A stretch of DNA of 64,000 bases from Psammoneis japonica (taxonomy: Eukaryota). The stretch's first letter is position 1, and each line of letters opens with the position of its first letter. Made by a program: the position numbers and the translations under genes. The notes under the pieces were generated by a model. The model had not been told where the DNA came from. It did no database searches and saw only the letters and a program-made list of their open reading frames with translations. The stretch covers positions 62,001 through 126,000 of the forward strand of contig QPGO01000017.1 in assembly GCA_008632985.1 (NCBI GenBank), in the 5' to 3' direction. Of this stretch, positions 17,538 to 64,000 are shown in pieces.

Positions 17538-17579
17538 GATTTGACAAGATTGATTTGGCAAGATTGATTTGACAAGATT
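17538..17579. repeat. 14-bp tandem repeat, 3 copies
   Basis: GATTTGACAAGATT GATTTGGCAAGATT GATTTGACAAGATT. Confidence 0.85.
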
Positions 17580-19735: not shown

Positions 19736-22700
19736 ATGCCCCCCCCCCCTCCTTGTTGCCGCATGTTTCTTGTGCATCCGTCTTCTCACATGTCCACATT
19801 TTATCCTGTTGTTCACATTCGCCGCGTAAGAGCCTTCCTTGACCGTCCCCAACAAGAAGCCAAAGACTGCATCACGCTCTGCCAAGGCACATCCTCCTGC
19901 GTCTGCCGACCTGCCGTCGTCACAGGAGGCAAACCGCACTCTCACCGCCGACCTTCCCACTCTGTCGGAAACCATGGATTCCCACAAACCTTCCTCTTCA
20001 CTGGAAGGTCCTCCCGCCCAGCTGCCAGCACCACGAAAGGCCCGGTTGCGTCGTCTCCCCCACTGGACCCCAATGACATGTCGTGGTTGGACAAGTCTAC
20101 ACTCCGACAGCGCTTTGACCCGCCCAAGTGTCGATCTGTTACCTCAGACGAAGTTGCTGCTCATGTGTCACGCCTTCACATCATTGACAAGGCAACTGAC
20201 ATGGAGCATGTGCTTCACCATTCCGCTGCCAACTTTTACCTTGCCGACAACCTCAGGGAAAACTGGCACATCTTCTCAAACAAAACCCCCATCAGCGACC
20301 CAACTGCCGCATCTCGTGTGAGAGCCGAGTGTCCTCCTGACCTCGATCACTGCTCAGACGAACTCTCTGTTGCCCGTCATGCAAACTCTCTTTACAAAGG
20401 GCACTTTGGTTGCCTTCGTGTGTGCATTCCTGCCCTTTTGCTTTTCATTTTGTTGAAGGGAGAGTCAGATCTCAAACGTGATGGATCGCTGGCAGTTGAC
20501 AAGGAAGACAGACAAAGGATCAAGATTGGCTGTGCTGGTCGGTCACATCATCCGAAGGAGCCTGGCTCTACAAAATCAGCCAAACCCAAGGCCACACACG
20601 GTCTTCATGTTTTTGATCCTGATGAAAACTTCGACGCGAAAGAGTCTTCCAAAATCAAGGCCATGGTCGCTGACATTCTTGACTCGATTCAGCTTTGCGA
20701 AAACGGCGTCGAGCTTTGGAAGCTTTGCAACCCCCCACCGTTCAACTGGTCGCTTTGGTGCGAAGAGCACTCCAAAACATTTTGTGATGAAATGGGTTGT
20801 CTACATTTCCGTCGTGAGGACGTCACCCTGCAGGGATTGTGCATGTCCCGTGGTCAATTTTGTGAAGGACACCGTGACGTAAAAAACTGCACCTGGCTTC
20901 GACATCGGAAAACAGCCGCTGGTTGTTTCTTTGTCATGGATGCCTTTGGCGATGCATGGTCCTTCAAGGCAGTCACCAACAGCAGAAGCCCCATTGGTCA
21001 ATGCTGCGACGACAAGTGCGACATGAACCCGATGTTGACTCGGATGCACCACAACCGAGCTCAGCTGGACTTTGCACTTAAAGACATGGATCTCCAACAT
21101 GATGGTCCCACCCATCCTGACTCTGTCCCAACCGCACGTGCATTCAAAAAACTCTCGCTGGATGACAGCCGGCCATGGAGCAATGTTGTCATCAGCGGAG
21201 GCGGTGTCATGGGAATTCCCCATGTGCACATGGATCGGCTTGAGTTCCCAACATTCCCTGTGAGGGACTTTCACCTGTCTGCCCCAAGCACAGTTCTGTT
21301 CCATTTCAAGAACATCATGTGCAGATCGGGGCCAGATCCGAAGCGAGTGATGCGGTTGGCCATTCATGCTGGTCATCTGACAGGGCATCACCAATTCTAC
21401 CATGTCGGTGACAAGTGCCTGCCTGAGCCATGTTGCCGAGGCATCGACCCATTTCTACAATTTGCCGATTGCTTGATGAGTGAGTTTGGCGTTTTGTTTG
21501 GTGATCCACAGGCAGGCAGGATTGGGCCAACCAATTTGACCTGCGACAAGTTTGCTGAGGTTTTCATTGACGACAGGCACATTGGCACCGCCAATGACCT
21601 GGTCAACCTGATGGTCAATGAAATCTGTGCAGTGCTGCTTTGGCTCAACGACAATGTCACCACCAATGAGTTCTGTTCCAATTAAATGGAACAACGCTGC
21701 AAGGCTGCCTGCGATGTTTGGGCACACAGGGGAGCAGATTTTAGCGAGATTTGTCTCATGTCAGTGCTGCATCGTCTCGCTCTGTCCGGTGTTGTGGTGA
21801 AGGACCACCCGCGTCTGAACGACATGGTGCATCCTGTGTTCAATTCTGGAGCGGCCGCTCAACTGGCCCACATTAACCCAGACGAACGACCGCTCATTCA
21901 CCAACGTATGTCATCAGAGACCGGGACCGAGGAGCACGGTTGGAACGGTGCAGAGCACAAACTCTGTGAGAACTCAGACAATCGCTGCACGTGCACATTC
22001 GATTGTGTGTTCCATGGTCCATGTTCCGGACAAGATCTCTTCACATTTTCTCCAACAGGCAAGCGATTGCGCAAACCCTGTGGATCAGTGGATTGTCAAA
22101 TTGTGGAGTGCGTTGACTCAGACCCTCACCTTTATGACCAAAAAGATGCGACGGTTCACGGTGGAATTGCGGCTGACCTTGGCGATGAATCCTTGTTGGG
22201 TGATGGAGTGGCTGCTGACAATGAATTAAACTCATTGTCCGGATCATCCGACCAGGATGAATCCTTGACGGAAGAATCCTCCGATGACGAAGACAGCGCG
22301 GGATTAATTTCTTGCGCATCGGACAACAACGAATCATTGGCACTGGACGGAGTTGTGGCAGACAACGAGCTTGGCTCCTTGCATGATGAGTCCTCCGACG
22401 ACGAAGAATGTGCGGGATCATTTTCTGGCGCATCGGACAAGAACGAATCATTGACTCTGGATGGAGTTGTGGCAGACAACGAACTCAGCTCCTCTGACGA
22501 CAAAGACAGTGTTTTGGAATGCGGCCCACCTGTCATTGCTCTCGAGGATGAGGAGAGTTTGGTCGACACCACCGACGACCGTGCAAATCCACCAGACCTT
22601 TCACAAAATCCCACTGTGGACGTGGACGAATGCATGGCGGCAACTTTGGCGCAAGTCTCACACCTTCTCCTGTGAGACTTGAGTGTGAATTGCTGTTGTG

Positions 22701-23873
22701 GCTCATGTGTGACTCTTTCTTCCCTGCTTTTTAACAATGCACAGTCGCGACGGCAGCGCCAAAATCCTGTGGCTGTGCATGACCAGGCCTGCAAATGCCG
22801 GACAGCTGTCCTTCGACGAGCTTTGTTCTGACCATGGGGTGCAGGCCGTGGCTAACACTCAGCATCGAAGAGACGAGGCCAGGTGTCAAGTTGCAGAAAA
22901 CCTGTGCACGAACACCAGCGTTGAGGCATGCACCGTCTCTCTGCAGGACGGAAGTGCCACGCACCACCTCAATTGCAACATTTCTGCAAAGGATTTTGTG
23001 TCTCGTGTGAAGTCACAATCCGGCGGTGAAATTGATTTTAAGAACAGTGGATTCATCCAGATTTGCATGGACTGTCACTGGATGCAACGCGGCGAGTGGA
23101 ACATGACGTCTTTTGGCAATCGCTTCTTCTGCGAAAACCCAAAAGAGATGATGCTGTCCTTGTTGCATCCCAAGTTTGAAAGGTGTCGCATCACAGTCCC
23201 GCGCAACCTGTGGTCCCTCTCCCAAGTCGTGCGCAACTTGGAGCACATAGAAGAATGCGTGCTGATGCAATTGATGACTCACGAAACGGCGTTGGACGAA
23301 ATTACGACACACCAAACGTTGCTCGAAATCGCAGAACAGGACAGGGGGGATTGGCCAGGAAAACCATCCGACCAGGAAGCCATGCATTCAGGAGTCACGG
23401 AACAGGAAATTCGGGAAACACTTCCAGAAACAGAAAGGGACAAGGTCTTAGACTTCACAAGAGAAGTCAAGAGTTGCGATCCGAAAAAATCCATGGAAGT
23501 TTTTTTTCTTTCTAAAGAAGCGTGCCAAATTGGCAGACCTGCCTCGACCCGTGGCCCCAGTGGTTTCTGGACCCGCACATCGATGAATGAAGCTGACTCC
23601 TTCAATTCTTGTGGCCTTGTCAACTGCACAAATTGGGTGAGTGCTGATGGTTTTGTTGTCTGTTTCCGAAATTGCACATGTTCCAACAATGGCATGCTCC
23701 AACACTGTTTTGAAATGCAAAGCAATGTTTGCAGTTGCCAATTGTTGATTGTGTCCATCAACCGCTGTTGTGAAATGCGATGGAAGAATTGGGTTGGAGA
23801 TCGTTTTTGGCACCGTGTTTCTGTTGGAGTGTGCATGGAGCATGGGTGCAAACTTCTGACCTGTGGTGATTGA
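19736..23873 (+). pseudogene. Large TE-borne gene relic (>1,300 codons) of unknown family; true start probably further upstream (frameshifted pieces from ~18.6 kb)
   Basis: ORFs 19736-21685 and 21686-22675 are contiguous in one frame across a single TAA. A GT-AG intron at 22672-22744 joins them in frame to ORF 22737-23873. Contains an HRDVKN motif at 20870 and three acidic DGV(A/V)ADNEL repeats at ~22200-22500. Confidence 0.6.
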
Positions 23874-24223
23874 TGTTCATGCATGATTCTGTGTGATTGA
23901 AAGTTTCAAATGCAATGATCCAGTCACATGTCAAAATCATCATCAACATTTAATTGTGCAATTCAAATTGAATGGTCGGTCACTTGAACTGAAACAAACA
24001 CAACCAAGCATGTGGTTTTCAAAGTCAAATGACAAAAATCACCAACCATGATGATTTGGGAAAGATTTGACAGTTGACAATGCACAAGGATGGGGAAGCA
24101 GTGTCACCATAAAGTGTTGGGAACAGGTTTGAAATTTTGCAAAGACAATTTTCCTCAGAAGAGCTTTTGCACTGCACGATTGCAGACAGGAGGAACTGAC
24201 AGTGACACAATGAGTCGAGGGCG

Positions 24224-25417
24224 ATGGGAAGGAGGAAGAAAGCAGCTAAGACGGATGCTGCAGGGGCAGAGGGAGCGCCCCACAGCCCGAGGCTTGTGGT
24301 GGCATTGCAGCAGATGGGGGCTGTGGTGGATCACAAGTCACCAAAGAGAGAGGTGGAAGAGGTGGCACGGAGAGAGCTGTTCCCAAAGGCGAAATTCCTT
24401 GTGAAGGCGGACGTGGCGAGTGGTGGCAAGGTGTCATGGCCAATGCGCAAAAACACAGCAGATGGCAAGTTCGGCAAGTGCGAATGGGCAGGATCATGGG
24501 AGGACTGGGCTAAAAAGAGCGTGCTCAATGCGATCAATGCAAAAAGAAACACCGTGTGTCAGACAACAATGAGGAGTGCGATGAGTGGCAAGTGAGGAGG
24601 AGTGGAGCATTTCCGAAGCGAGAATAGAAAGTGGTGCCACCAATGAATTGCTCATTTTTCTAAAGTCGTTGTGACAGAAAAACAAGCAGAGGAAATCCGA
24701 GAAAAAAAAAAGAAAGAAGCAAGGAAGAAGAGATCCGTAAAAAAGCGGAAACAGGACGAAGCTGACATTGAGGAAGAGTTCATTGCGACTTGGGAGGATG
24801 GGACAGTGGGCACAATTGTGATGGAGAAGTGAAAGGACAGAGAGGCGTGTGCATGGTTCTATGACAACGTCCTAAAATTCACGAAGAGCACTGCAATGTG
24901 GAGGAGGATGGCAGAGTCCGGAAGCACCAAGGCCACAGATCTGGCTGCTGCAAGCGACGAGGCACTGGCCCTGTTGATGATGGAAAACTGCTGGAAGGTT
25001 TGGGAGTGCAAGAAGATGCAGGAGTTAGATGAGGAAGGGAGCGAAGAGGAAAAACCAGCTACATTGCACATGGACCCGTCGCGACAGCGTGACTCTTGGA
25101 AGGATGAAGGAATGGTGCGCTTCAACGATTTGCCAAAGGAGGTAAAGGAAGACAGGGCGAGAGAGCACGGTGTGCATTTCAACACATGGCATGCAAACGA
25201 AAAGAAAAAGGAGAGCAAAGAAAAGGGAAAAAAGGCGAGAACCACTCAAGAGCCAGCGAAAACAGAGACGAGAACGCAGGCAACATTGGAGCTTTCCAGT
25301 GACGACGAGGAGGACGATGAAGCAACGGAGACACCAGGTGGCAGAGAAGATGAGGAGGAAGATGAAGCTGGCCAGGAAGACAGTGACAGAAGCAGAGGAA
25401 ATGAGAATCCAGTGTGA
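24224..25417 (+). pseudogene. TE-associated accessory gene relic (SDEALALLxxENxWxxW family); join(24224..24587,24678..25417) with one in-frame TGA
   Basis: Intron 24588-24677 (GCAAGT..ACAG) joins ORF 24224 in frame to ORF 24896. Single TGA at 24830-24832. Motifs RELFPKAKF, AINAKRN, AWFYDNVL, SDEALALLMMENCWKVW, SWKDEGMVRFNDL..DR, and an acidic tail. Confidence 0.65.
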
Positions 25418-26593
25418 GCAAATTGGAAATGTAGGACGACCAGGACTGTGGCATTGACTTGGCATTGATTGAGCGTCGATTGATGAAAAATGTTAAAAAG
25501 CTGTGGCGATGCGTCTTGGTTGATTGCAAAGAGTTGGCCAAATTCATTGTGTTCATCCCTTTAAATTGCAAAACTGTTGTGTGATGCGAAAATTGACAAT
25601 GATGTTGATTGTCAGCTGTTGCACTGAACGAAGGCACATGCTGAACGGGAAAAGAGGGGGACGTTTGCACAGTCAAGGTTTGTTCTCATGGACAAAAAGA
25701 TGTCTCTGTGGTCAAAAAAAATTAACTGTCACAGATTAAATTTTTTTACCAGCTGCACAGCTAATGAGGTTTGAAACTGTTAAAATTTTGTCTGTTGAAG
25801 AGACAAAAATCACAACGAAAAGACAAAGCAAGATCACTGTGTTGCGCCCTCTGATGCAACTCTTGTTGTCTTTCCTGGCATGAGCACATCGACGAATCCA
25901 ACGCAGTCATCACATCGTCAAACCCATTTGATCAATGGCATTGACCAGATGAATGTTTTTGAAGACTTTGACAAAGCAACTGCAGCGCATTCAGCCAACA
26001 AGTGTTCTTTCTGAATGGGAGAGAGTCGGGTGGATGATGAGAGTGAAAATGAAGGATGTGAAGTTGGTGCACAGTTCAAGAAAAAAGCAGTCAAACAATG
26101 TGGACAAAACACTCTGATGCTGTCATCATAGAATGACAAAGAACAGTGAATGGAGCTCCTCCCTGGCTGCTTGCACATGCTCCAGCTGGGACGGAAAGCT
26201 GTGTTTGTCACTTTTTCAATTTTTTCTTTTTTGGATTGACAAAGTGCGGATTTTTGCTCTTATTCGCATCTAAATGTCTTCCGTTTGAGCAGAAATTCAT
26301 TGCTTCTGCGAAAACGAAGGAAACGAAAGGGAAATCAGGTTACATTGAATCAATCCCGAATCATCGAGTCCCGCATACTGTAGTGTCCAGACAGTCAGTC
26401 AGACAGTTATTCCCTGCCTCCATTCCTTGCTGGCCACGACACACCCAAAGCGAAACTTCTGCTCGCCAAAATCACAGCCAGAAAGAAGCGAGGTGAAAGC
26501 ATCCGAAGATCGCGTAGTGCTCCACATCACGGCAAATACCGGTACGTAGACGACTACCGCAACAAATACTGTAGCATCAAAGCAGCAACAACC

Positions 26594-48146: not shown

Positions 48147-48557
48147 GAGTCATAAGTAGAATTGTATATATTTTTTATACACTTGATTTTTTAGGTAAGG
48201 AACCCGGATCCAACATTTTTTTGAAAAAATGTTGGATCTGTTACGACGATTCTGCAGAATCTGAGATTCTGCTGAATCCTGGCATGGAATCTTGTGAAAA
48301 TGAATTCTGTGGAATCAGACCTCGTGCCCATGTTTTGATTCTTGTGAATGATGGATTTTGAAGAATCCGTCTTGCCCACTCACCAGAATTCCTGTTTCTT
48401 GCAGTTGCCGGATTCTGAAGAATTTTGGCTGCTGGCTCAAGACGTGGCACCCTTGTCTCTCAGCCTCTGTTGCTCTTTTGCAGCACCTTTCTTGTTGTGA
48501 TTCTGTTGAGTTTCTTGGTCAAGAGGAGAGTCTCTTTGTGTTGCTTTTGCTGCCATC

Positions 48558-51500
48558 ATGTCAGTTGCCCTTCCCCCCTCCTGCCCTGATGCCACTGCTG
48601 TGACTTCTCCCGAGAAGGTCAGGAACATCTTCATGGAGACCAAGCACTGAGATGCCTTCAACAAGGCTGCATTTGGCGTTGAGAATGATGACTTTGCCAG
48701 TGCTGTCATCCCGCCAAAGTCCAAGCTCCTGCTTCGATCTGAGTGGGAGAAGAGGGTTCGGGCAGCGAAGTTCTGGAACACGGGAGCTGATGGGCTCAGT
48801 GCAAAAGAGTTTCGCAAGCTTTTCACCCACCAAGCTCATGTGTGGCAGAAGGTTTTTTTGGTGAAGACAAGTGACCTTGGCCATGACACGCTTTTCCAGA
48901 TCAAGAAAGGCGCAGATGGATCTGTGACATCCAAGCTCATTGTTCTCTACATTGAGCAGGTTTTTGATGTTGTGGCACAGCACCATGGACAAACAGGTGG
49001 TCATCTCAAATTGGGTCGCACGTTCAATGACATCAAGAAAAAGTTTTACAATGTCACAGAATTGCTGGTTTCTCACTTCATTGACCTTTGCCCCACTTGC
49101 AGCAAGGCGCAGCCTTCTGTGTCAAGAGTTGAGGGGGCTCGAGTCCCCATCATGAGCAGAAGTTTCCGGGACCATTTCCAGATTGACTTGGTGGATTGCT
49201 GAAAGGACCCTTGCCAGTTCCACCCAGGGGACCCCAACTCCCCAGTCATGAAGTGGCTCATGGTTTTGAAAGATCACTGCACCAGGTTGCTCTGGACCAC
49301 TGCCATTCCCTCCAAGGAAGCAAAATGGGTTGCCAAGGAGTTCTGCCACATTTGTTCTTTGATCGGCTACCCCCTTGTAAGCCACACAGACAATGGGAAG
49401 GAGTTCACAGCAGAGCAAGTGACTGAAGCCATCCAGGAGCTAAACCCATGCTGCAGCACTGTCCACGGTGGTGCCAGAATGCCTTGGCATCAGGGATCTG
49501 TTGAGCGCTCCAACCACCCAATCAAAACAGCCATTGCTTTGCTGGTGGAAGAGGAGCGCTGCCGAGGGAATTCAAATGCATCTTGGGTCACTGAGCACCC
49601 CAAAGCGATGGCATCTCTCAATGCAACTGCCAACAAGGGCAAAAATGAGCACTCATCTTGCTTCCATGTGTTTGGCATGGACTTCAATGAGCTCCTGACC
49701 ACGACTCCTCTTGCAAAGCTCAACAGCTCCAAGACTGTGGCTGAGCAATGCGCCATCATTGGAGGAGACTACAATGGGAAGATGCTTCTGATGGGTGAGG
49801 TGACTGAGGAAGAGATTTCAGAGGTTGTCTCTCGAGTGAACCCGCCACCCACTCTCCCCGGTGCAGAGGTTGAGGAGCCCGGGCCTGTGACTCCTCCTGC
49901 ACCTCCTGGCATCAAGGATCCACACCCTGCTTCTGAGACGGCAGCATGTGATGGCTTGGGTGACCTCAGCTTGGACTTTCAGGCCGAAGGGTCCTCGCTG
50001 CAAGCCAACATGAAAGGTCCTCATGCCGCTGCAACCAGTGGGGCCCTTGCTTTGTTTTCTCCAATCAAGCCCAATGCTGACATCAGATTGATGCGGCCAA
50101 CTGACCCAAGCTGTGGTGCAGTGGAGCCACCAAAAGAGGCCAAGCATGTGTCCAAGGGGATGAAGCGGGGCAACAGCACAGCCCAGACAATTCCTCCAAA
50201 GAAGAGAAAAGTGGGTCTTTTGGGACACCCCAAAAATTCAAAGCAAGAGCAGGAGCCCAATCCATCGAGTCCAGGGCCAGGTCTGCAACTCAAGCTGTGG
50301 CCAAACAAGACAAAGCCAAGCCAGCCAGCACCTCTGCCAAGTGAGCCAGAGCCTGCAAAGCAAAAGCTGGCCAAGCCACAGAAAAAGACAGAGCACCAGG
50401 TGATGAAACAGGAGCCCAAGCACACACCACCGAAGCTTCCAGAGCTAAAGCTGCGAGTGTCAGACCCAAAGTTCTGGTCAAAGTTTCCACTGCAACGAAG
50501 TGTTGACCTGTCCAAAACAACTCACCGAGAGTCCCTGGATGACTGCACCACACCAAAGTGTGTTTGTCCTGTGCTGCAATGCAGCAGGTGCATTGTGACT
50601 GGCCAGCCATTCAAGATCAGCTGCTACGATGATGACTGCGTCAGAATCAACAAAGCCACCAACCGCTGGTTTGACACAAAATTTGTGTCCTCCTTCTGCC
50701 AGCTGATTGCTCATGAGGGTCATTTGGACCATGTGAGACTGGTCCATGCTCAGTTTGGGTCTGTGTCACTCATTCATCTAAAGGAACAGTTGATGACAAA
50801 GCCAGTGGATTTGCCACAAACAGTCCAAATGCTCCTCTCCATTGCACACAAGTCCTCGCATCATGCCGTGCTTGAGTTTTTGCTGTCTCAAAACACCGTG
50901 AAAGTTTTTGATGGTCTTGGCTTCAAACTCAGCATTTGGAATGACGAAATCATGCATGTTCTCAAAAGGTGTGGCTTGGTTGACCCAGATGCTCAAGCAA
51001 GGCAGGTTTTAGAACACGAGAAAAGTGGGGCACCTCCTGCTGCAAAAAATTGCCGTTGCAGCGGATCCACCCAAACTTGGAAAGTCACAAGGGGAGATGC
51101 CCTTGTTCCTCAGAAGGACAGCTTCAGTTGTGGGCCTCAAGCTTGTGTTTTGATGTGGAGTTTCCTTTGTCCGAAGAGCACGCCCATCCCCCTTGAGCTC
51201 ATTTCTCCAGAAAATTACAGAGAGATGGTGATGAACAAATGTTTGGAGTTGCTGAAGAACCCCTTTAAAGAATTGCATTTCTGCCACAAAGTTCATGGAG
51301 TGTCCATCGACTTGGATGATGACAAGATCCAAAAAATTCCCAGAAACCTTGTCATTGACATTGAGAAAAAACAATTGTCTTTGAAAAATTGTCAAATGGA
51401 TGACAAGCTTCCCCAACACTTGTGTTGTGGATTTTGCCTTGACAAGACGCTCAGAGTTGACACAGGACTTTCTTGCTGCGGACAGCCAGTGCACTTGCAC

Positions 51501-52895
51501 TGTGCACTTGGCTGCATTGAGTCATCTGGGCAGTGCCCATTCTGCAACTCTAGCATGAATGAGAGTCAACTGGAGACATTGGGCGAGGATGACGTTGAGT
51601 CACTTCATGATGAATCAGAAGTTGTTGGCACGATGACGCTGCATGACTCAAGCTCCTCTTCACCCAAGAGGGACACAAAAAACCCATCTGTTCAGAAGAA
51701 AAACAAGCAGCACTCCAATCTGTTGGCATGCCATGTCCCTGAAGACGAAGATGAGGAGCCAGAGGCCAAGCTGAGTGAATCTCCTTTTTATGATGCCAAG
51801 AAAAATCCTGGAGGATTTTTTCTCAGAACTGGAACAAAAATCAGGTTCAAGTGTGGAGGCGATGGTTGGTCACAGAGGAGAGGAACTGTGGCGGGATTCA
51901 AGAGGAACACTGTGATCACGTCCTCTGGCGAATGGCTTTGCTTCAACAGCCAGAAAGAGGAAAAGGACATGCTGGAGGAATGGGAAGAATTTGATGGGGT
52001 TTTTGACCCATTGGTGGCTGTGGAGCCAGAAGAGAATGACGAGCCTGTTTTCATGGAGTTGCGCAAGTGGCATGTTTCCACTGATGACAGGTTGCAGAAG
52101 TGGTTGCTGGAGTTCCGCAAGTCACAAGAATGAATGATGTGTGACCAACTTGTCGAGAGAATCACCCAACAACTTGGTGAGGGCAGTGCTCAGTCTGTGG
52201 CTGGGCCAACCGGAGTGGCTGCCATGCGCAAATCTGCTGCAAAGACGAAGGACTTTGGGCCCATGCCAGCTCCAAATGGTGCACCCCCTTGCAAGATTTG
52301 GGTGATTGATGGTGGCACCCCAACCACTGACTTGCTTGGCAACCCCAAGCATCAGAGCCAAAGACACAAGAAAAATCGCTGTGACAAAGAAGCCCGACTC
52401 AGGCAAGAGCGCAGTGCAAAAAAAATGAAGGCGAGGTTCAATGACAGCCGCATCATCTCACCCGGCACATTGGCTCAGCTGAAGGTGGACAAAAGGGACC
52501 GGAAACATGGAAGCTGCCTTGGGGTCATTGGCGTTGCTTACAAGCAAAACAAAGACAGCATGTCAGCGAAGGTTGTGACAGAAACAGGTGTGATTTCTAC
52601 AGGAAAAAAGCCAAGAAACATTCAAGCCAGAAATTACAGCCCGCTGAAGAACCAGGAAGTGCCGGTGTCAGAGAGTCTAGACAAGTGGTGCAAGCAGGTG
52701 ATGAGCGGAAAGTTTGACAAAAATGAGTGTCCAAAAGTCAGCTTGAAACAGGCGCACTCTGTCTCTGCCAGAGGCGTGCTTTGGCAAACTTGTCTGTTTG
52801 GCGATTTGCAGAAACAGGTGGGAGAATTGAGCAAACAGCACAACAACCCCAGCGGCAAACATGCAGTCGCAACAGCTCATCAGCTCCAGCTCTAG
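48558..52895 (+). pseudogene. Integrase-like transposase polyprotein (HHCC Zn finger + DDE core + Ulp1/C48-like peptidase + RING-like finger), ~1,445 codons with three in-frame TGA stops
   Basis: One frame from ATG 48558, with TGA at 48648, 49200 and 52131. HHCC: HHGQTGGH...IDLCPTC. DDE: FQIDLVD, VLKDHCTR, SHTDNGKEF, QGSVERSN. Peptidase: SHHAVL..VFDGL..PQKDSFSCG. RING-like: CGFC..CCGQPVHLHCALGC..CPFC. Confidence 0.85.
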
Positions 52896-53267
52896 AGAGA
52901 AAGCTAAAAAGTTCAATCGTGGTGCAGATGGCAGTCGATCAAAAGAGTCTTGCTGGCAAAAAGTTGCAGCTCTTGGTCTCTTCGAAGACCGTTGAATCGT
53001 TCCTGCAAGTGTCCGAGTTCCTCATTGATGTGTGGCCTCTTGTCCTCCTAAACTCCCTCGCTAAAACGAATTGCGACGTGCAAGCTTCCAAGAGATTGCA
53101 CGGTGTCCAGAGATCTTTGTCTTGGTTGCATGGCGGCCAAAGTCCTCGGGTTGTCACAGAAACATCGTCTCTTTCAAACATTCGCAAGAGGAGCTCTTTG
53201 TCCGTTTTTGACACTTTTGCACCTCTTTTGAATGCAGCACAAACAACTCGACTGTCTTCATCCATGC

Positions 53268-53429
53268 AATCATGTTGGTCGTGGTTGGCACACAATGACG
53301 TCATTCAGAGAGAGGTTTTCAATTTTCCAAAGCAGTTTTGGAGGGGTTGGGACCGGAAATCATGTCGGTCGTGGTTGGCACACAATGACGTCATTTAGAG
53401 AGAGGTTTTCAATTTTCCAAAGCAGTTTT
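53268..53429. repeat. 72-bp direct repeat, 2 copies (90-bp period) in the 3' noncoding part of the Ginger-like element
   Basis: 53268-53339 and 53358-53429 differ at only two positions (53276/53366 and 53306/53396). Confidence 0.9.
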
Positions 53430-55029
53430 CATCGTGACGTGTGTGGTGGACAGTAAAAAGTTACATCGTGACGTGTGTGGCAGTCAACTTGCCACACCGT
53501 GCCACCCGTGACGCACGCAGTGGCCAGCCATCTGTGACGTAGGGGCCCCACGCAGCAGCACGCAGTGTCGGCAGCAAAAAAGTGCACGCGGGTTCGAACC
53601 TCCGCGCGATTCACACGGACGTAGAGACAGCTAAAAAAGTCTAATCACTCCCAAATTGGGAGCGATTGGACTTTTTTAGCTTTCTCTGCCATGGTGTAAA
53701 TCGCACGAAATACACGCGCAACATCACCGATGACCCCCCAAAATCGAAGACAGAAAAGAGACCAGGCCTGCGGGGAGCATTGACCACTTGTCTTTCACTT
53801 TTGTGGGCGGGTGTGTGCCGTTGCATGCTGCACTGTCTGTGCGTGCACAGGGCCCCAGGGCCCTGCCGCCGGGGCCAGCATTGTGGCGGCTGAGTGGCGT
53901 GGCCACCGCACCGGTGATGCGGATGACCATTGTGTTTGATGTCTCATGCCATTTTTGGGGCTGCAGCGAGGTGCACGGACACTCTTTTTTTCCAATTTAT
54001 TGCCATGACAGCGCATCGCACAAACTCACTTGTTGTTCGATGTGTTTTCCCAAATGTGGCTGTTTCGTGCAGAATTCGCGATTGATCATCTTTGTTTGCA
54101 GCTGAGCGCATTTTTGAACATGCCACGCCGGCAATCCCAACTTTACAGCACTTTCGAGCTCTCCTGAAAAACCGTGCCACGCACCCGTCGCAGGGAATTT
54201 ATCGATTTTTTAGGATGTCCCCACGACCTCTCATGTCCTCAATGATCATTCCGCGAATCCGAAGAGTTCATCTGCACCAAACAACCCATCCCGCTCCAAA
54301 ATCCGAGGGGCACACTTTCAAATTCAGACGGACAACCCGACTGCCCGACCCCCCGACTGCCCGACCCCCCGACTGCCCAACTGCCCGACTGCCGGACCGA
54401 CACGAAAAAGTCTGCAATCACCAACCACCGAGTGGTCAATGAAATCACGTTCTGCCACCATGGGCTGGTTGCTGGCTTCACCCCTTGCAGCATGACAACT
54501 GCAGTGACAGCTTCCTTTTTTAATCAACACCACCAGTGGCTTTACAACACTGCAAACTCTATGGGTGCGGGCCCTTGTTCTGGCGTTGTCTTCTTCTGAG
54601 TGGTGCACATCGGTCGGTGTGGGTTCTTCTTGCGGTGCTGTGAGTACAGCACAGACGGTTCGTACTGCACCGCAGGCAATTCAGTTACCCACGTCGTGAC
54701 ACATCTATTCAACTTATAAATATATTCATCAAATAAATATTTTTATGTTCCACGATTCTTATGAAAATAATACTAACGGCATTCTGAGGAACGGACACGA
54801 AATTCTATAGAATCGAGGACGTTGATTCTAGATAATCGCGCAAGACGAGCTCGAATTTTTTGCTGGACGGGACCAGAATTCATAAGAATCGGAATCCGGA
54901 TTCTGTAGAAACGGAATTCTCTAGAATCGTCGTGACAGATCCGGGTTCCATGTTGGGTATGCATGACCGAGCGCGCGCGCGCAATGCTGCAGGAATCTTT
55001 CGAAAATGACCCGTGACGTAGGTACCGTA

Positions 55030-56825
55030 AGGACTGAGGCGAGCGCGCGGCTGCATGAAGTTAGGCGGGACTCATTCAGTCACGTATGCGCACACACTCT
55101 CCGAACGCCACTCACCATGAGAATCGGAACGGCATTTCATGCTATTGTAAAACCTTTTCAACAACAGCAGTGCTTTAGAATAGTTTCTACCATCTTATAG
55201 AAACTATTTTCATCGCTTGTTTGAAGGTAATTGCTCAATCGAAAGGTCAAAAAATGGATTTTGTAATTGCACCACCATCCGCTGCTCTTTTTCGTGTGCT
55301 GTCGCGATGCAATCGCACTGCGCTTTCGTGTCACTGACTCGTTCTTTTTATTTGATGCGCTCGTTTCATACACTTATATAGGGAGCATTTCGACCATGTT
55401 AAAAGCCCCAACGAGGAACACTGGCTCTTAGTTTCATGTCGACATTTGAGCCATTTGTCTGCGGCCGACATTTCTGCATCAATCGAAATGGGGCTGTTGC
55501 GTGTCATGCACAGTCTTTTGGATCAAGCCAAGCAACGGATGGTCGATTTCATTGATAATGTGGATTATGGTGTGCGTCATTTGATGGCAGACAACGGCAA
55601 GTGTATGATTTGTGGAGCTCACAACTTGCTGCCGCGAGAAATGATGACACTCACCTCGAACGCAAGCAACCAACGACACTTTCTTGCTGTTTTGCATTTT
55701 TCTTGCTCATTGTTGAAAGCTTTGGGTGCTTGTCGCTTCACTGCGGTTCACGCCGGCTCAGTTGGCACACTTTCCAAAGGCCTGTCCAATCGAACAACTT
55801 CGAGAGCAGGTCAATGCGTTCGTAGATTGCCGTTCGGACGTGACCGCTTGGAATGTTGAGAAACTTGCGAGCCACCTCAGACTCCAGTGCGTCAACCCTT
55901 TGCGACTTGTTGCTCTCACCTCCTCCTCTTTCTTCTTCTTCTTCTTGTCCTCCTTCATTCACAGGTTGGCGTTGAGTGGATTGGGCAGCTTGGGACTCGG
56001 CAACACCGGATTGGCGTTGAGTGGATTGGGCAGATTTGGCAGCTTGGGACTCGGCAATGCAGGATTCATGTGCACGAGTGCTGTCATCTCCTCCCCCTTC
56101 TTCTCCATTCACAGGTTGGCATTGAGCAGATTGGGCAGCTTGGGACTTGGTGTCACCGGATTGGCGTGTGCGAGTGCTGACACAGAGCCAATCTTTCTCG
56201 CATGTTTGCTGCCAAGAATGCCGCGGGATTTCACACGGCAATTTGACCAACGATTTGTGCAGGGACACAAATTAAAAGAGATGCTGAGCATTGGAGATGC
56301 AGTTGCTTTTCTTGTTCTTGATCTTGACGCTTTTCAATGCACTCATGACACGCACCTCGGCACCGGGTCATGGAGCTTCTAGATGGGGTCCATGTTCGGG
56401 ATGCTTTTTTCAATTCGGCATTCATTTGTGTTGCCTTGACATCTTTGTCCACACCCCGGAGCTTCAACTCCGTCAACCAAGCATCGGCGCTGACCCAATG
56501 CCCAACAAAAGACGACGTTTTCCATGGCTTTGTCGCGTCGTCGAACGCTGCGTGGATCGTTCTTTGTTTTGGCGCCATTTCATCAAATCAGCTGCACCCT
56601 GCACCTGATGCACAAAGTGGACCAGCTGGGCATGGGTGGTTCACAAACACTGGTTGGGTGCAGTGAATGTTGTTGCCAGCAAAAGTCATTTGCACCGGCA
56701 TGCCATTGTCGCACCCGTCATCATTTTTTCCCGCGGTGGCACCGCGGTGTCCAGATGGAAGTGTTGACAAGTCCCGAGCAGGCAGGACTCAAAACTTCAT
56801 GCAGCCGCGCGCTCGCCTCAGTCCT
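55030..56825 (-). mobile_element. Non-autonomous TIR DNA transposon, 1,796 bp, 33-bp perfect TIRs, TA target duplication (Tc1/mariner-like geometry)
   Basis: AGGACTGAGGCGAGCGCGCGGCTGCATGAAGTT (55030-55062) and its exact reverse complement at 56793-56825. TA at 55028-55029 and 56826-56827. A broken minus-strand ORF starts MAPKQRT at 56578, with internal short repeats at 55957-56167. Confidence 0.8.
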
Positions 56826-58276
56826 TAAAAAGCACAAAACAATTGTGGACGCCTGTAGAATCTGCATGTTTTTGTGCTGAAACTGTTGTGTTCACACAAT
56901 TTGTGCAAAAATGGACTTGACTGTTGTCGGGTCAGGTGCATTTTTGCAAATGTGTTGAAGAAAAATGTGCCTGATCAGAAAACAGTCAAGTCCATTTTTC
57001 GCAAAGTTAAAATTCACTGAGAACAGACAGATGGACTTTTCAACAATTGTCTTGGCACTGTTCCACACATTTCTGTGCAAATGACTCCACAGCATGAAAG
57101 ATTGCTGTTGAGGTCATGCTTTTTTCGTCTGCCCGTGTGTCTTTGCTTTCACCGTGCCCCCCCCCCCCCCCCACGCAGCATGAAATCCTCAATCCGTGGC
57201 CATCGGAGTCGCACAAATGCACATCATCAACAATGACCCGCTCGCTGTGGTCACCGTTTGTGTGGTGTGGCACTTTCATTGGTGTGGTCGCATCCTCAAT
57301 TGTCTGAAACAACTCGTGACATGTGTTGGCTGACTGCAGACATTGCACGTGCAAGGTGTTGACATTTCTGCATGTTTGGATCTGCTTTCTGGCAGAAGAG
57401 TGCAGCTGGCTGGTGGGTGCAGCACTCTTGTGACAATTGCATGCATGTGGTGGTTTGGGATGAAAAGCACCAGGACTCCATTCACCCATTGTTTTGAGCT
57501 CTGAAAAAGACCAAGGTTTGGCTGCACACAATTTTTCGTGCAAAAGAAACAGGATCTCTGCCGTGCTTGTGCATTGTTTGAAGATGTTCTTGCGCATGTG
57601 AGAGAGCAAGAACAGCCCTCATCAAATGACCCATTTTGCTGTGTTGAGTGGAGTTTAAAGCTCTGCCCTTTTCTTCCCATTGTTGGGCTGTTCATGCTGG
57701 TTGATGGTTGTCAGCTTGCACAGCAGTGCATGCGCAGCACAACAACAGACTTTGCTTTGGTTCACACTGATGCACTTTGGCCCCAACTTCAGACTCAAAG
57801 AGCTGCTGCATTCATCAGAGGCCCGTTTCCATGAGTTGTCTTGTGGTTGGACCAATGGACAATGTTGCAGCCAGCATGTGTGAGTGTCAGCACATGGGTT
57901 CATTTGTGATGATGATGAATCACTGCCATTCAACACAAATCACACCTGTTTGCCACAAATGGGTGTGATTAAAAACAAAAAAATGTCCGTGCAAACCAAC
58001 AAATGTCCAGAGACATCAACAAACAGCCATCAATCCCAACAAGTGAGCTGCAACTCAATCAGTTTGCAATGCCGAACAAGCTGCTTTGCGGGATTTTGCT
58101 TGGCTCATTGTCGCCGACCAGGTGACAACCAAATGCAGTGCTGGGATTTGTTTTCAATCTTTGCTGTCAAAGTCAATTGGTTGACTTGTGTGTTCAAACA
58201 ATTGTCTCCATTGTCCCATCTCCATTCATTGCATGTGTTGCTGCTGCAATCAATTGTCAACGAATGTGAGTGCAAG

Positions 58277-59250
58277 TCATTGCCACTGAGCCAATCTCAA
58301 CTGAACTGCCATCAATTCCAGTTTCCAGATTTTGGCACAGTTGACATGGCGGTCATCTTCATCATCCAAGCCTTCTTGTGCTTCTTCTGCCACCCATCGA
58401 TCTTGCTCAGTTGCAACGGCTCTGTAGAGCTCTTCCCACTGGCCAAGGCATCTGCTCACAACATCTTGCTTGGTGTTTGTGACCATGTCAACAAAGAACT
58501 TGTTGGTCTTTGGTGACCACCCTTTGCTCTTCCTTGGTGTCTTGAGGTTTCCTTGGTCCCGCATTTCCGTCTGTGTCTTTTGACTCTGCTGCCATGAAAT
58601 GCTTGAGTGTCCTGACAACCTTTCTCTTCTTGCTGGGTGCATCCTCATCATCTCTGATCTTCTTGACCATCATGCCCAGTTTTGTGATGGACTCTTCCCT
58701 TGCATCCTTGAACTTCTGTTTCAGTTCTTGAGCAGGCACACCTTCCTCCAACGGCTTTTGTGGATCTTTCTGGAGCAGCACAAACATGCTCTTGTCCTGG
58801 TCATCCTTCTCCTTTGCTGTTGCAAGGTCTGGCATGATGATCTTGCACAGGTCCTTGCTTCCCTCTTGGTCTGTCAGGCCTCCATCATCAACCAACTCCA
58901 CATCGTAATCCGACATCAAAGACCCATCCTTGTTTTGGCTTTTGCAGTCAGCATGCCATGCATTGCAGTTGTTCTTGAGGAGCATGTGGGCAAATGCCTT
59001 GGTGCACACTGTGCTCATCCTCTTGTCCTTGAAGGCGCACGTTTTCCAGCATGTGTCTCTGACAATTGGGTGCAGCATGCAGTTGCAGAACATTGTTTGC
59101 AAAGCTGGGTTTCCCAAGCAATCTTGGAATCTTTCCATGGATGGCAAGATGCAGTTGTTGTCATCACCGCATGCACAGAGAGCTTCACTTGTTGCAACAG
59201 GGAAAGCAAGTGACAACACTGTCAGCAATTGCAACGGCTGCTTTTGTTGC
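58277..59250 (-). pseudogene. Frameshifted relic of the same TE-associated protein family as 24224-25417
   Basis: MFCNCMLHPIVRDTCWK..TVCTKAFAHMLLKNNCNAW, followed in another frame by KGWSPKTNKFFVDM..KQD. These parallel WFYDNVLKF..W, SDEALALLMMENCWKVW and SWKDEGMVRFNDL..KED. Confidence 0.55.
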
Positions 59251-62200
59251 ACCCTCCATTCAAGATGGTGAAAATAAATGAAAATGTTTGCTCCCAATGA
59301 GTCAATGTTGATTTCAATCTGGAAGGGGGTTGACGAATGTTTGCACGCATGCGCACACCATGAGATGGCGGGGTTTGATGACCTGTGACTCAACGCCTTT
59401 TCTGTGGGTCTCTGATGTTCCATGGCATGTGCCACAGCCAGAGCCAACTCTGCCTCTCTGCCCAGCATGCCCATCATCAGCCAATGTTTGAGCCTCTGAG
59501 GAGCCAGCACATGGCTGGCTGCCGGCAGAGCTGAGCATGCTGCAGAGCAGCAACTCTTCATGTGACACAAGTTGGCCTGTTTGTGCTGTTTTGATCCTGT
59601 CATCTTGTGCAAGAGCAGAGTTGATGAAGCTTGCCACCTGCTGACTCTGGATGAGAGAACAATCAGCAACAACTGCTTTTCCTGCAAATTGTGTGCAATG
59701 ATGATGAAACAGGAAATTTGACAGGCTTTGCCATCAACCGTGCTTTGCAATGACTGGTGGATCTGCTGTGTGCAGCCTAGAAAAATTTTCTTCTGCTCAC
59801 AGTGCCCAAACAGAAATCAGTCCCTTTGAGTCTTCCAGCAACAGTCAACAACAGTGCAGTGACTGCAGCCAGTTTGAAGCCTTGCAGTTCTCTGATGACA
59901 GTGCAGCATCTGCAAGAAACTGAGATCTGGGTTTTGATTTCCTCTGTCAATGGAGAGAGTGCTTCTAGCCTGGAGATCTTGCACACAAAGAAAGACAGCA
60001 AAACCACTTCTGCAATGCCACAGTTTGTAATTTGGAAGCAGAGAAAACAGCCCATGCTTTGCTTTGTCAAAGACCAGTCAGGAGAGAAATGTGTTGTCTG
60101 CCAAAGGCAAACCAGAGCACATTTCCAACTTTTTGGCAGCTTGTTTTTTGGTGCATTCTTTTCCTCTTTTCCCCAAGAATCAGCTGCCCACTGTTTTTCT
60201 TTCCTTCATGTGCTCCTGTTGAGCAAACCAGTTTTGTTTGTTTCTTGCTCTTTCTTGCTTCCAGCTTTCTCTTCCTGGCCTTCTGCCATTTTTTCTTTTT
60301 CTGCTGCAGCACTCTGCAGGCACTGATGAGCCAGCACCCATGAGCAACAGGATGAAGTGACAATGAATTGTTGCTGCACCTGCAACCCAAATGGCTGAGA
60401 CAATGCCACAGGTGTGCCAAATTCAAGTGCCCAAATGTTCTGATGTTTGGGATCTAGGAACAAGGTGAAAAAGAAGATTTGACAGAGAAAGCCTGGTGTG
60501 CAAAACACACTCGCACAATGACAGCTTTTCTTTGAGTGCAAACACAATTCTGCGTTCAACACATTGTTTTAACCACTGAGATGTTTTGCCAGTGGCCTGC
60601 ACCCCACTGGGAAAGAGGAGCAAACAGGCAACAAATGCATTGCTTTAAAATGCACAATGGCTGAGCAAAGCTTTCTGATGGCATCATCCATGCCTTGAGA
60701 CAATCAGCCATGCAACTGTTTTGAGCTCTGGGCACTCCTTTCTGTTTAGCCAGTTTTGTTTGTGACTGTGCATTTTACCACCACAGCAATTGCTGGCTTG
60801 CTGTTTGCAGCAGCGCACCAAAGCCATGTCTTTTGAGATCTTGCACCCAGAGATGAGCTGTCTTGAGACAAATTTGCCTGCCACCACAGTTGAAACAACT
60901 CTCAAGCTGTGCTGGACATGCTCCAGTTTGTGCACAATCACAGCTTTTGCAAGTCATCCAAGAAGTTTTGTGGAACCCACTCTGCACAGCTGTCAGTGAT
61001 CTGTTTGTCATTGCAACAACAAAAAACACAGTGCCAAGAAACAGCAAAAACTCACATGCATTGCAACTCAAGCTTGCAGCCATGGAGCTCAATTTGTCAT
61101 TGAAAATGGGGAGAACACAGTTGCAAGAAACAGCAAAAACAATGTTGGGGCCTCTGCCAAGTCAGACACAACAACCACCTGCCAGAAAGTGCAAGGTGTG
61201 TGACTTGAGTGTCATCGTGTAAGAGACAGATGCAAAGGTGGGGTCTGGAGGTCAAAAATCTTTCATAAATTCTTCACAGGTCTTGGACATGATGCTTTCT
61301 TTTTCATTCATCAGACAATGGCACTGTGCAGAAAACTTTGAAAGTTGTTGAGTGGATTTCCCAATGTCTCACAGCAGTGGCCCACCCAGCAGTGCCAGGT
61401 GAAATCAGATTCACAGTGTGTCATCAACAGTGATGGCAGAAGAACCAGGCAGTGGGGAAGTCAGAGCAGTGTGCGTGGCACTGATCACACTGAGGGCTGG
61501 AGATGCAGCAGTGGACAGAGCCTGCCAAGCACCCCAGTCATTGACTGCTTGGCAGACTGACAAGCTTCAATCATCTGGAGATGGGCCAATCTTCAGCCAC
61601 TTGCATCTTTGAATGGGTGGCAGAGGACATGGCAACATGAGCAACAAAATTCTCGTGGTGGCTGAGATGCAGGGCAGCAAGTGTCAGTGTGTTGGATGCC
61701 ACAACAAGCTGCAGCATCATGTTGTGGCCTGCAAGAGTTGTGCCAGGCACACACAATCTTTTGCCCACAACAATTTTTTGGCCACAAACCAAATGCAGCA
61801 AGTGTTGTTTGTCAATGTGGGCACATTGTGGGACAACCAAAGCTTGTCTCACATTGCAAACAGCAGCTGGGAGGTGGTCAAAAGAGAGGAGATGAGAAAC
61901 CACAGCAGCACTGGGGTTGCACAAGGGAGGGAAGTTTTGCTCACAACTTGACAATGGCGCTTGTTTTGGAGCTGTCTGATTTCTCTCAAGCACAGTGCAA
62001 GAAAACATGCAAAATCAAAGCAAGCAGAAGGCACAGTCAGAAAGATGTGCTGTTGGGCCAGCTGGTGGCTCGCAGAGTTCAACAGGGAAAATGTCCCACA
62101 GCCACCAGAGAGTGCTGCGCAAACTGCACCAATGCCAGCATTGTTGTCTGCAATGTGTGCTGCAAGAAGCAAAACCATCAAAGACAAGGTTTTTGATCCT

Positions 62201-62424
62201 CTGCCGGAAGCAAAATGTGCACGAACAAGTGTTGCCTCCCAACAATGGCAAGCAGCAGAAGCTCAAGTGCTGTCTCTGGATGGCAGTGCTTGTCTGATTG
62301 GCAGAATTCAACACACAGCAAAACTCCCAACTTGTGCACTTGACTTGCAGCCGACAAACAGCAGTGAGCTCAGTGCAAGCAGCAGAATGACATCTGCTTC
62401 TTTGTGCTGGCAAAAAGGAAAATG

Positions 62425-63085
62425 ATGATGGAGGTGAAGAAAAATGGGATAAAGCAGAAAATGAGCCACCACAAAAATGGCACAAAAGTTGATGAAGGGT
62501 TGGGAGGCCATTTCAGAAGGTGTGGTGAACTGCTTCTTTGAATTGGCATTGTCAAAATGGTGGTCTTGGACATCTTCGTTTGCTGCTGACATGCAACCAA
62601 AGGAAGAGGCAGAAAGCAAGGGTTGTCAGAACAAAAAGCAAAGAGAAAGGGGATGCTGCAGCTGCAAAAGAGGCAGAAAGGTAAAATGCCGATGATGGAG
62701 ATGAAGAAAAAAAGGGGACAACATGGAGAATGAGCCACTGTGAAAATGGCGCAAAAGGCAAGAGAGGGTTGGGAGGCCATTTCAAGAGGTGCAGCAAAGT
62801 GCTGTTTTGATGGGGAGCCATGAACCCCGTTGGTGTTGTCAGAAGGCTGGTCTTGACACCATTGTTGTTTGCTGACAGCCATGTTCAATGATGGAGATGA
62901 AGAAAAAAAGGGGACAACATGGAGAATGAACCACTGTGAAAATGGCGCAAAAGGCAAGGGAGGTCGGGAGGCCATTTCAAGAGGTGCAGCAAAGTGCTGT
63001 TTTGATGGGGAGCAGTGAACCCCATTGGTGTTGTCAGAAGGCTGGTCTTGACACCATTGTTGTTTGCTGACAGCCATGTTTAATG
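62425..63085. repeat. ~196-bp tandem duplication (62692-62887, 62888-63085) with a more diverged third copy from 62425
   Basis: ATGATGGAGATGAAGAAAAAAAGGGGACAACATGGAGAATGA...GCTGACAGCCATGTT(C/T)AATG is repeated. Confidence 0.9.
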
Positions 63086-64000
63086 TTTGATTGTGCTTTG
63101 CTCTTTTTCTGTCATGTGCGTGTGCTTCATGACAAACTGCATTCATGCCTGGACAAACCTGTGTGTTGTCAAAGTGTTGTCAAATCAGAAAGATGCTGGT
63201 TGAGAGTGGGGAGACTCATTGACATGCCAAGTGATGTGGTGTGTGAGGCAATGATGTGGGTGCCAGCACAGGAGTGATTGGTGGAGTTGCTTTGCAGAGA
63301 GAACATTCTTGCATCTGCAAGAGTGCTTTTTTGTGCAATTGTGAAATGGAACATCGTGCGGCTGCCATTGGTGTTGGTGCTTGTGGCAAATTGTTGCTTG
63401 GCAGTCTTGTCAGGAAGCAGCAGCAGCAGTGATGTGTTTGTGGAACAACCTCCATCATCAGCGGTTCAATCACGAGTCACCAGCCCTCTCTCAACCAGAC
63501 ACCCTGGGGCTTTTGTGCTCACCCGCCATCACCATGCACATTGTTGTGGATGTTTTCTTGCCTCTGACCTTCTCCCACCAAAGAGTCACATTCACTTTCC
63601 TCTCTGTGTGGAGTGTGCACGCACTTTGCTGTGCAACACTCCATGGCTGAAAAATGAAAAAAAATGAAAAAGAGGAGCAGGCAGTTGCAAAGCAAAATGA
63701 TGACAACACAGGCATCTCAAAACTCCTTGTTTCTGTGTGTCACTGGGATGGGCTTGTTTGAGATGGAATTTGTTTTGGAAAGTTTCTCCATTTCTCTCAG
63801 CAAGCACAGCAAAAATTTTGTGAAATCAAACTGAAAAGGCACAGTCAGAAAGATGTGCTGTTGGATGAGCTGGCAGAGTTCAATGAGGAAAACATCCTGC
63901 CAGAGAATGCTGTGCTGCTGACAATGATGTTGGTGTTGTCCACAGCATGTGCCACAAGCAGCAAAGCCGTTGAAAGACAAAACAGTGTGCTGTCTCCTCA

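Follow-up and report, generated by a model that had tools for sequence, protein, structure and literature searches.

Flank-dependent loss of TpA from DNA of probable transposon origin in a 64-kb stretch of the Psammoneis japonica genome

The dinucleotide TpA has been almost completely lost from parts of a 64,000-nucleotide stretch of DNA of Psammoneis japonica (GenBank assembly GCA_008632985.1, contig QPGO01000017.1, positions 62,001 to 126,000 of the forward strand; here called the window and numbered from its first letter), and the survival of the few remaining TpA depends on the two bases that follow the A on each strand. The depleted blocks, one of which holds an integrase-type transposon at 48.6-52.9 kb, have probably arisen from transposons and come under the action of a TpA mutator that works on DNA and follows a 3'-flank rule. 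The counts reported below establish the context dependence of the loss, its multiplicative strand-wise form, its direction and its restriction to A preceded by T.

Survival of TpA and the six-base rule

From the dinucleotide profile the window is sharply split in two, with 26.5 kb of TA-depleted DNA in four blocks and the other 37.5 kb of normal composition. The blocks were delimited in 500-bp steps by the observed/expected ratio (o/e) of TA alone and, since they were set from TA density only, the analysis of the flanks is not circular. In these blocks the TA o/e is mostly 0.00-0.23 per 500 bp (maximum 0.34, at 53.5-54.0 kb), CG is lowered and the TG/CA o/e reaches 1.5-1.9, while the remaining 37.5 kb have a TA o/e of ~0.62. 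Overall, the probability of A after T is 0.054 in depleted against 0.342 in normal DNA (TpA o/e 0.09 in the affected DNA) and the TG/CA o/e is 1.63 against 1.18, with AA, GA and the other steps at the same level or higher. The blocks, which carry no strand, are listed with their surviving TpA in three flank classes (R, purine; Y, pyrimidine): RTAY, YTAR and mixed (RTAR or YTAY).

10001..11000: short TA-depleted block with a host gene on either side; TA o/e 0.20 and 0.03; 8 TpA, of which 1 RTAY (at the block edge), 4 mixed and 3 YTAR
15501..26500: largest TA-depleted block; 83 TpA, of which 3 RTAY, 41 mixed and 39 YTAR
48501..54500: TA-depleted block containing the open reading frame (ORF) region first singled out; TA o/e 0.00-0.34 per 500 bp, CG o/e 0.2-0.99, TG/CA high; 36 TpA, of which 1 RTAY, 19 mixed and 16 YTAR
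55501..64000: the most eroded of the TA-depleted blocks, in which no coding frame is credible; TA o/e 0.00-0.13, CG o/e 0.00-0.84; 27 TpA, of which 1 RTAY, 13 mixed and 13 YTAR

A sequence-only reading of the window had tallied by eye ~38 surviving TpA in two regions, none of them in RTAY context and about half in YTAR. The exact count is 39, with 0 RTAY and 19 YTAR (48558-52910: 20 TpA, 0 RTAY, 9 YTAR, 11 mixed; 57001-64000: 19 TpA, 0 RTAY, 10 YTAR, 9 mixed), and the lack of RTAY has a binomial p of 2e-5 against a share of 0.25. When the depleted blocks are pooled, the 154 TpA comprise 6 RTAY, 71 YTAR and 77 mixed sites, compared to 461, 259 and 721 among the 1441 TpA of the normal 37.5 kb (Fisher test on RTAY:YTAR, odds ratio 0.047, p = 8e-23); a first-order Markov expectation for the depleted blocks would be 29.8 RTAY and 48.3 YTAR. 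The pattern recurs in all four depleted blocks (RTAY 1, 3, 1, 1; YTAR 3, 39, 16, 13) and is reversed in all five normal sub-blocks. The 154 survivors are the whole sample and are partly clustered; the pattern does not come from one cluster, because YTAR outnumber RTAY in 36 of the 53 depleted 500-bp segments (2 opposite) and in only 13 of the 75 normal ones (52 opposite). As the same reading had noted, a few RTAY do survive in the 15-26 kb block, namely GTAC (T at 19725), GTAT (21907) and, in addition, ATAC at 26376. Four of the six RTAY survivors of the depleted blocks (10016, 26376, 53711 and 55604) are found at the edge of a block or where depletion is weak. The other two, together with a cluster of survivors, are the following, again without strand.

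19724..19727: RTAY survivor GTAC, one of only two in a depleted-block core
21906..21909: RTAY survivor GTAT, the second of the two in a depleted-block core
18140..18340: eight clustered surviving TpA, all at junctions of a T-run with an A-run (TTAA five times, ATAA, TTAT, GTAA), 0 RTAY

The step from survivors to survival rates requires the ancestral counts, for which two baselines were used. In the first, the pyrimidine-purine (YR) steps of each flank class in depleted DNA were multiplied by the TA share of that class in normal DNA; the ancestral purine/pyrimidine pattern is still readable because the decay of TA to TG/CA and of CG to TG/CA proceeds by transitions. The expected ancestral counts are 308.7 RTAY, 530.6 mixed and 162.4 YTAR, hence survivals of 1.9, 14.5 and 43.7%, respectively. 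From a bootstrap over 500-bp segments, the YTAR/RTAY survival ratio is 21 (95% 11-57) and the per-strand rate ratio TAY/TAR is 4.7 (95% 3.4-7.3). The second baseline, independent of the first, comes from metagenome sequences, in which a scan with aligned distant relatives of the integrase element as query gave 54 loci; the matched coding parts of 25 of these (L001-L027 minus the near-duplicates L019 and L024; 53.9 kb, TA-unmutated) contain 2345 TpA, with 785 RTAY (33.5%) and 357 YTAR (15.2%). The quarter that had been expected for RTAY in the absence of any preference must therefore be raised to about a third, as the relatives and the normal DNA (461/1441 = 32%) both indicate. Equal survival of RTAY and YTAR after correction is clearly not found with either baseline. 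Close pairs among the metagenome relatives (84-99.9% identical) provided no polarised events, their differences not being dominated by TA versus TG/CA. Among the 40 listed of 1342 places at which the copies in a public sequencing run (X1) differ from the window, 7 are TA versus TG/CA, few for testing; at these the window is mutated at 4 RTAY, 1 YTAY and 1 YTAR and retains 1 YTAR.

The flank rule is wider than the tetranucleotide and reaches position +2. For each strand, the half-site was taken as the two bases 3' of the A. At +1 the enrichment among survivors is 2.44 for A, 1.04 for G, 0.64 for C and 0.34 for T; at +2, A is the most protective base (2.23-fold enriched). Among complete half-sites, TAAA is enriched 5.7-fold and TAGA 2.7-fold, while TACT, TATC and TAGT stand at 0.15-0.18-fold and TATA at 0. 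At +1, T and C are equally mutable (TATY, 10 survivors against 416 sites in normal DNA; TACY, 15 against 476), and TACR half-sites survive ~3.4 times better than TACY, the TACG count being blurred by CpG decay. A Poisson model in which the two strands add independent hazards, each set by the bases 3' of its own A, fits the data (Pearson chi2 7.1 on 6 degrees of freedom) with per-strand hazards of ~0 for TA-RR, 0.93 for TA-RY, 1.31 for TA-YR and 2.32 for TA-YY; compared to a model without context the likelihood ratio is 183, and the addition of +2 to a model with +1 only brings 72.4 on 2 degrees of freedom. At one extreme YYTARR is essentially untouched (28 seen vs. 28.6 expected), its share being near the normal 0.080 in the three large blocks (0.085, 0.069 and 0.067, the last corresponding to 6 of 89 YR steps in 55501-64000). 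At the other, RRTAYY is absent (0 seen vs. 69.3 expected; 0 of 355 YR steps). The hexamer classes are thus told apart more than a hundredfold, about as sharply as by a recognition site. The loss of CpG over the same flank classes in the same blocks shows no trend, and for this reason the flank effect belongs to the TpA process.

The integrase element

The ORF region of the third block corresponds to one element, whose parts on the plus strand are listed below.

48651..49199, 49203..52130 and 52134..52892 (+): integrase-type transposon, three frames in one phase, with Integrase_H2C2 and rve domains (Pfam) and a long C-terminal part

The stop that separates the first two frames, a TGA at 49200-49202, is the only one between them, and six other contigs of run X1 have C at 49200 (CGA); a CpG-to-TpG change has therefore broken this copy, while other copies are open there. 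Protein homologues consist of 8 distant relatives (P0001-P0008) with 34-46% identity over 15-23% of the query and include no close paralogues; a metagenome scan with the ORF alone as query found no relative. The element and its relatives share the integrase, one relative has in addition a weak Ulp1-protease match, and none has a reverse transcriptase. Integrase and Ulp1-protease without reverse transcriptase is the domain set of Ginger-type DNA transposons, to which the element may belong.

From 48651 to 52892 the element retains 18 TpA where the relatives predict ~185, so that ~90% are gone, and a 976-codon open frame has been kept. With the relatives as baseline, the expected and observed numbers are 61.8 and 0 for RTAY, 41.5 and 1 for RTAR, 53.2 and 10 for YTAY, and 28.1 and 7 for YTAR. 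Nine of the ten YTAY survivors are in-frame Tyr codons, all of them behind a pyrimidine, compared to 30% in host genes (p 1.4e-4). Of the surviving Tyr codons that could be aligned, 5/7 lie where the relatives have Tyr, two of these at highly conserved columns, and three conserved Tyr columns carry Phe in the window element. After removal of the Tyr codons, survival in the ORF is 0/61.8 for RTAY (0%), 2/94.7 for mixed sites (~2%) and 7/28.1 for YTAR (25%), and by simple arithmetic these counts again agree with strands that are hit independently, at a rate ratio of ~4.6. The element has the appearance of a transposon lineage that was exposed to the mutator during its evolution and remained under selection, beyond mere post-mortem decay.

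The mixed survivors are strand-skewed in opposite ways in two regions, with YTAY 10 : RTAR 1 in the ORF region and RTAR 8 : YTAY 1 at 57-64 kb. In the former, the skew is explained by the selection on Tyr codons; in the latter, which is non-coding, it may be a strand bias of the mutator. In the self-complementary class RyrY, at 60-64 kb, TG amounts to 0.58 and CA to 0.38.

Two contigs from a microbial-mat metagenome (L016 and L012) carry a relative of the integrase element together with TA-erased stretches. Positions 1-1250 of L016 have a TA o/e of 0-0.11 and a TG/CA o/e of 1.6-2.1, with 5 TpA and 0 RTAY, and positions 3751-4750 of L012 have 19 TpA with 1 RTAY. As judged from these contigs, another organism, too, seems to undergo TpA erasure with this flank bias.

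The changed base and the rival explanations

In the proposed mechanism, the T:A pair at the A of TpA would be changed to C:G, giving TG in place of TA on one strand and CA on the other. The two strands would be attacked separately, at a rate set by the dinucleotide that follows the target A (YY > YR > RY >> RR), and a TpA would survive only with purines after the A on both strands, that is as YYTARR, mostly where a T-run meets an A-run. RTAY would then be the four-base shadow of a six-base rule under which RRTAYY is wholly erased. The enzyme would read 5'-T-A-Y-Y on the attacked strand, and the simplest candidate would be a polynucleotide adenine deaminase, converting A to inosine, which is read as G. 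Its action would be on DNA rather than on an RNA intermediate, as suggested by the increase of both TG and CA and by the element at 48.6-52.9 kb, which has no reverse transcriptase. Enzymatic specificity had already been suggested for the four-base pattern; of that suggestion the flank preference is confirmed and sharpened, and an enzyme that reads TAYY is what we infer from it.

Survivors alone cannot separate an A followed by Y from the A of R-T-A, and for this reason the products were counted. The direction was evaluated in the class YY-yr-YY / RR-yr-RR, where the model predicts a near-total one-sidedness. With normal DNA as baseline (z 2.3), the TA-derived gain of TGYY from TAYY is 0.107, compared to 0.022 for the reverse product; with the relatives as baseline (z 6.1) the two values are 0.193 and -0.012. 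The sign is the same in three of the three large blocks with both baselines. Furthermore, the three clean cases of a conserved Tyr column lost in the window are all TGY (cTGCg, tTGCt and aTGTt, two behind Y and one behind R), with 0 CAY. Counts of Cys and His codons by preceding base were set aside, being confounded by the decay of CGY and by doubtful frames. The product counts locate the change at the A of 5'-TAYY, whose pairing partner is the T of 5'-RRTA. Thus, the proposal that the target is the A in TAY or the T in RTA holds in its core, from the order of survival (YTAR > mixed > RTAY), the independent-strand fit and the product counts.

Several points weigh against a TpA mutator with this flank rule. 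The ancestral contexts were estimated from composition and not observed, and the two baselines are both imperfect, the normal-DNA one being mostly coding and the relatives one coming from a single family. With the former, the direction test reaches a z of only 2.3. The product asymmetry in tetranucleotides is uneven over the blocks (57:43, 48:52 and 100:0), and the baseline itself varies by as much as the effect. Moreover, selection also shapes the survivors of the ORF, and that region alone is not a clean read-out of the mutator. Finally, the re-creation of TpA from the large CA/TG pool, discussed below, predicts the class counts about as well as the mutator does.

One rival keeps the same flank rule and replaces the chemistry: the T of 5'-RRTA would be modified, for instance hydroxylated through the pathways of 5-hydroxymethyluracil or base J, and be taken for C when read or repaired. 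With the A of TAYY paired to the T of RRTA, all counts fit A deamination and T modification alike. Base J and 5-hydroxymethyluracil occur at T before A in some protists. Nothing in the sequence favours this chemistry over deamination, and the authors of the sole described parallel, in Bigelowiella, read it in the text of their preprint as A deamination (bioRxiv 10.64898/2026.01.13.699255); T modification is considered unlikely.

The most serious rival is the re-creation of TpA, according to which the remaining TpA were newly made from the CA/TG pool by a UV-like C-to-T change at YpC, and the bias belongs to the back-mutation. This model predicts the class counts about as well as the mutator does, since by arithmetic 74.6 mixed sites are obtained, against 77 seen, if 5.6% of YC and 0.47% of RC precursors change, and a photosynthetic cell is exposed to light. 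However, in the tandem gene copies of the window 20 C-to-T changes lie outside CpG, 9 at YC and 11 at RC, which under the required 12-fold YC preference has a P of ~7e-8; this sample is small and coding and includes 9 unrooted events of copy C, the polarised copies A and B alone giving 4 YC and 7 RC (n=11). Moreover, YYTARR stands at the normal ceiling in three separate blocks, as predicted by a 100% survival ceiling and not by re-creation, TpA are fewest in the most decayed block, and 5/7 of the alignable Tyr codons that survive match a Tyr in the relatives. Re-creation therefore appears quite improbable.

The bias could also be inherited composition or the result of selection on stop codons, Tyr codons or codon usage. 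This is indeed what is seen in part of the integrase element, where the excess of in-frame Tyr codons among YTAY (9/10 in ORF 48651-52892, p 1.4e-4 against 0.30) is clear, and two survivors are ORF stop codons (21683 and 52893). Nonetheless, the block at 55.5-64 kb, with no credible frame, follows the same rule (1 RTAY, 13 YTAR), the unmutated relatives of the element have RTAY and YTAR in the proportion 785:357, and the ORF keeps the same order of survival with its Tyr codons set aside (RTAY 0/61.8, mixed 2/94.7, YTAR 7/28.1). Composition and selection, very improbable as a general account, are largely refuted by the non-coding block.

Repair synthesis by DNA polymerase eta at WA, or editing of RNA by ADAR or ADAT enzymes followed by reverse transcription, would likewise yield A-to-G changes after a 5' T or U, and both are hardly credible here: A after A within purine triplets is enriched and not depleted (0.570 in depleted vs. 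0.501 in normal DNA), which confines the effect to A behind T and leaves the polymerase signature, a check on AA to AG proposed from the start, unsupported; and, for RNA editing, both strands are changed, one affected element lacks reverse transcriptase, and the +1 preferences described for ADAR and ADAT2/3 in the text of PMC9600606 are opposite to the rule found here.

The surroundings, known systems and biological meaning

The window consists of eukaryotic DNA poor in introns, and among its host genes (Pfam) are MinC_C, PAPS reductase with thioredoxin, a FAD oxidase and a tandem DUF7467 array; no deaminase domain was found with Pfam among the window ORFs. Genes with Pfam domains sit in DNA with a TA o/e of 0.3-0.9, and the depleted blocks hold the integrase element and multi-copy sequence, 2113 contigs of run X1 being matched by the depleted stretches. 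Integrase_H2C2 and rve, at 48651-49440, are the sole Pfam domains of these blocks: all open frames of block 15501-26500 gave no Pfam match, and those of 55501-64000 gave two sub-threshold matches only (DUF6535 and TgpA_N). A self-BLAST of the window gave 12 short matches only and no paralogous transposon pairs within the depleted blocks. CpG loss is uneven across the blocks (CG o/e ~0.65 at 15.5-26.5 kb and ~0.15 at 57-64 kb) and TA loss is near-complete everywhere; the two losses seem to run at independent rates. Between the last two blocks, the 1 kb at 54501-55500 is high-copy in run X1 and has a near-normal TA content (o/e 0.6-0.7). In other contigs 55017/55018 is joined straight to 56826/56827, indicating an insertion of ~1808 bp (55018-56826) that is missing from other copies. 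The DUF7467 array (28321-42050, minus strand) consists of tandem large genes in ~2.5 kb units that are 96-98% identical, with internal repeats of 177 bp and 132 bp, a strong GC skew and normal TA.

A hypermutation restricted to TpA has been described in Bigelowiella natans, where it affects integrated viral and transposon-like DNA and has an elevated de novo rate in mutation-accumulation lines (Mettrop et al., bioRxiv 10.64898/2026.01.13.699255). As far as that preprint's main text goes, the two cases agree in that only TpA is affected, with conversion to TpG/CpA, that foreign or repeat DNA is the sole target, and that TA-poor, CA- and TG-rich clusters with transposon domains are formed. They differ in the host (a chlorarachniophyte there, a diatom-like alga here), in the CpG loss that accompanies TpA loss here, and in the degree of depletion, which in Bigelowiella is mild (rho 0.45 in the viral region) compared to 0.02-0.16 here. 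The main text of the preprint treats the dinucleotide only, with 0 occurrences of 'context', 'tetranucleotide' or 'trinucleotide'. In full-text searches of the literature no account was found of TpA erasure in diatoms or of a flank rule, the Bigelowiella preprint being the only related report. TpA hypermutation is thus already known, and the present counts add a model of independently attacked strands, a test of direction, a baseline from the transposon family and a signal of selection on Tyr codons.

A more distant parallel is repeat-induced point mutation (RIP) of ascomycetes, to the extent of the descriptions consulted: there too dinucleotide-specific transitions are confined to repeats, a compositional index is left behind and transposons are killed, although RIP makes TpA from CpA, while here TpA is destroyed (TpA o/e 0.09, CpA/TpG o/e 1.63). 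The action of APOBEC3 on retroviruses is another case of a host deaminase whose flank preference can be read from mutated DNA, with the difference that cytosine is deaminated on single-stranded cDNA, which leaves a one-strand G-to-A signature.

Among adenine deaminases, the sequence-only reading had compared the TAY preference to TadA. As given in the text of PMC12296453, UACG is the motif of native TadA, and TadA-8e retains a dependence on UA alone. The strong need for a T/U 5' of the edited A is shared with the rule described here, and the C at +1 is shared with bacterial TadA alone; on the other hand, T at +1 equals C here, G at +2 is not favoured (TACR survives better than TACY), purines at +1 and +2 protect, and the substrate is chromosomal DNA on both strands. 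The analogy is therefore weak. According to the relevant text of PMC9600606, fungal ADAT2/3 (Tad2/Tad3) editing prefers U at -1 and, at +1, favours G and disfavours C, and ADAR slightly favours G or A at +1. The A-to-I chemistry proposed here and the prime importance of the 5' neighbour (U in fungi) would be in common with fungal ADAT2/3 and animal ADAR, whereas the +1 preference is reversed, purines being protective here, and those enzymes act on RNA. Hence, the 5' T is common to this rule and the TadA/ADAT fold, and at +2 the rule matches none of TadA, ADAT2/3 and ADAR.

The flank rule provides a sequence fingerprint for the candidate enzyme, which is fastest with pyrimidines after the A and hardly acts with purines, and it narrows the search for that enzyme, ADAR-like and ADAT2/3-like +1 preferences being excluded and native TadA being a partial fit. 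In practical terms, TA loss weighted by flank can serve as an annotation index for affected DNA, as the RIP index does in fungi, the ancestral sequence of repeats can be inferred with a known bias, and the rule predicts which TpA will mutate first in mutation accumulation. A natural deaminase acting on chromosomal DNA would, if real, be of interest as a base-editing activity. More tentatively, and short of an expectation, it is possible that a genome-defence enzyme of diatom-like algae edits chromosomal DNA in its duplex form, one strand at a time, at 5'-TAYY, as a natural, sequence-reading A:T-to-G:C editor, and that transposon lineages respond by purging TA and keeping only essential Tyr codons, behind a pyrimidine. 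In that case the substrate pocket of the enzyme would have left a direct footprint in the six-base immunity of YYTARR, and the footprint in the microbial-mat contigs suggests that such an editing system may extend beyond one species. The pattern of Tyr codons suggests that transposons adapt to the mutator, and such an adaptation would add to TpA hypermutation a host-parasite interaction that has so far gone undescribed.

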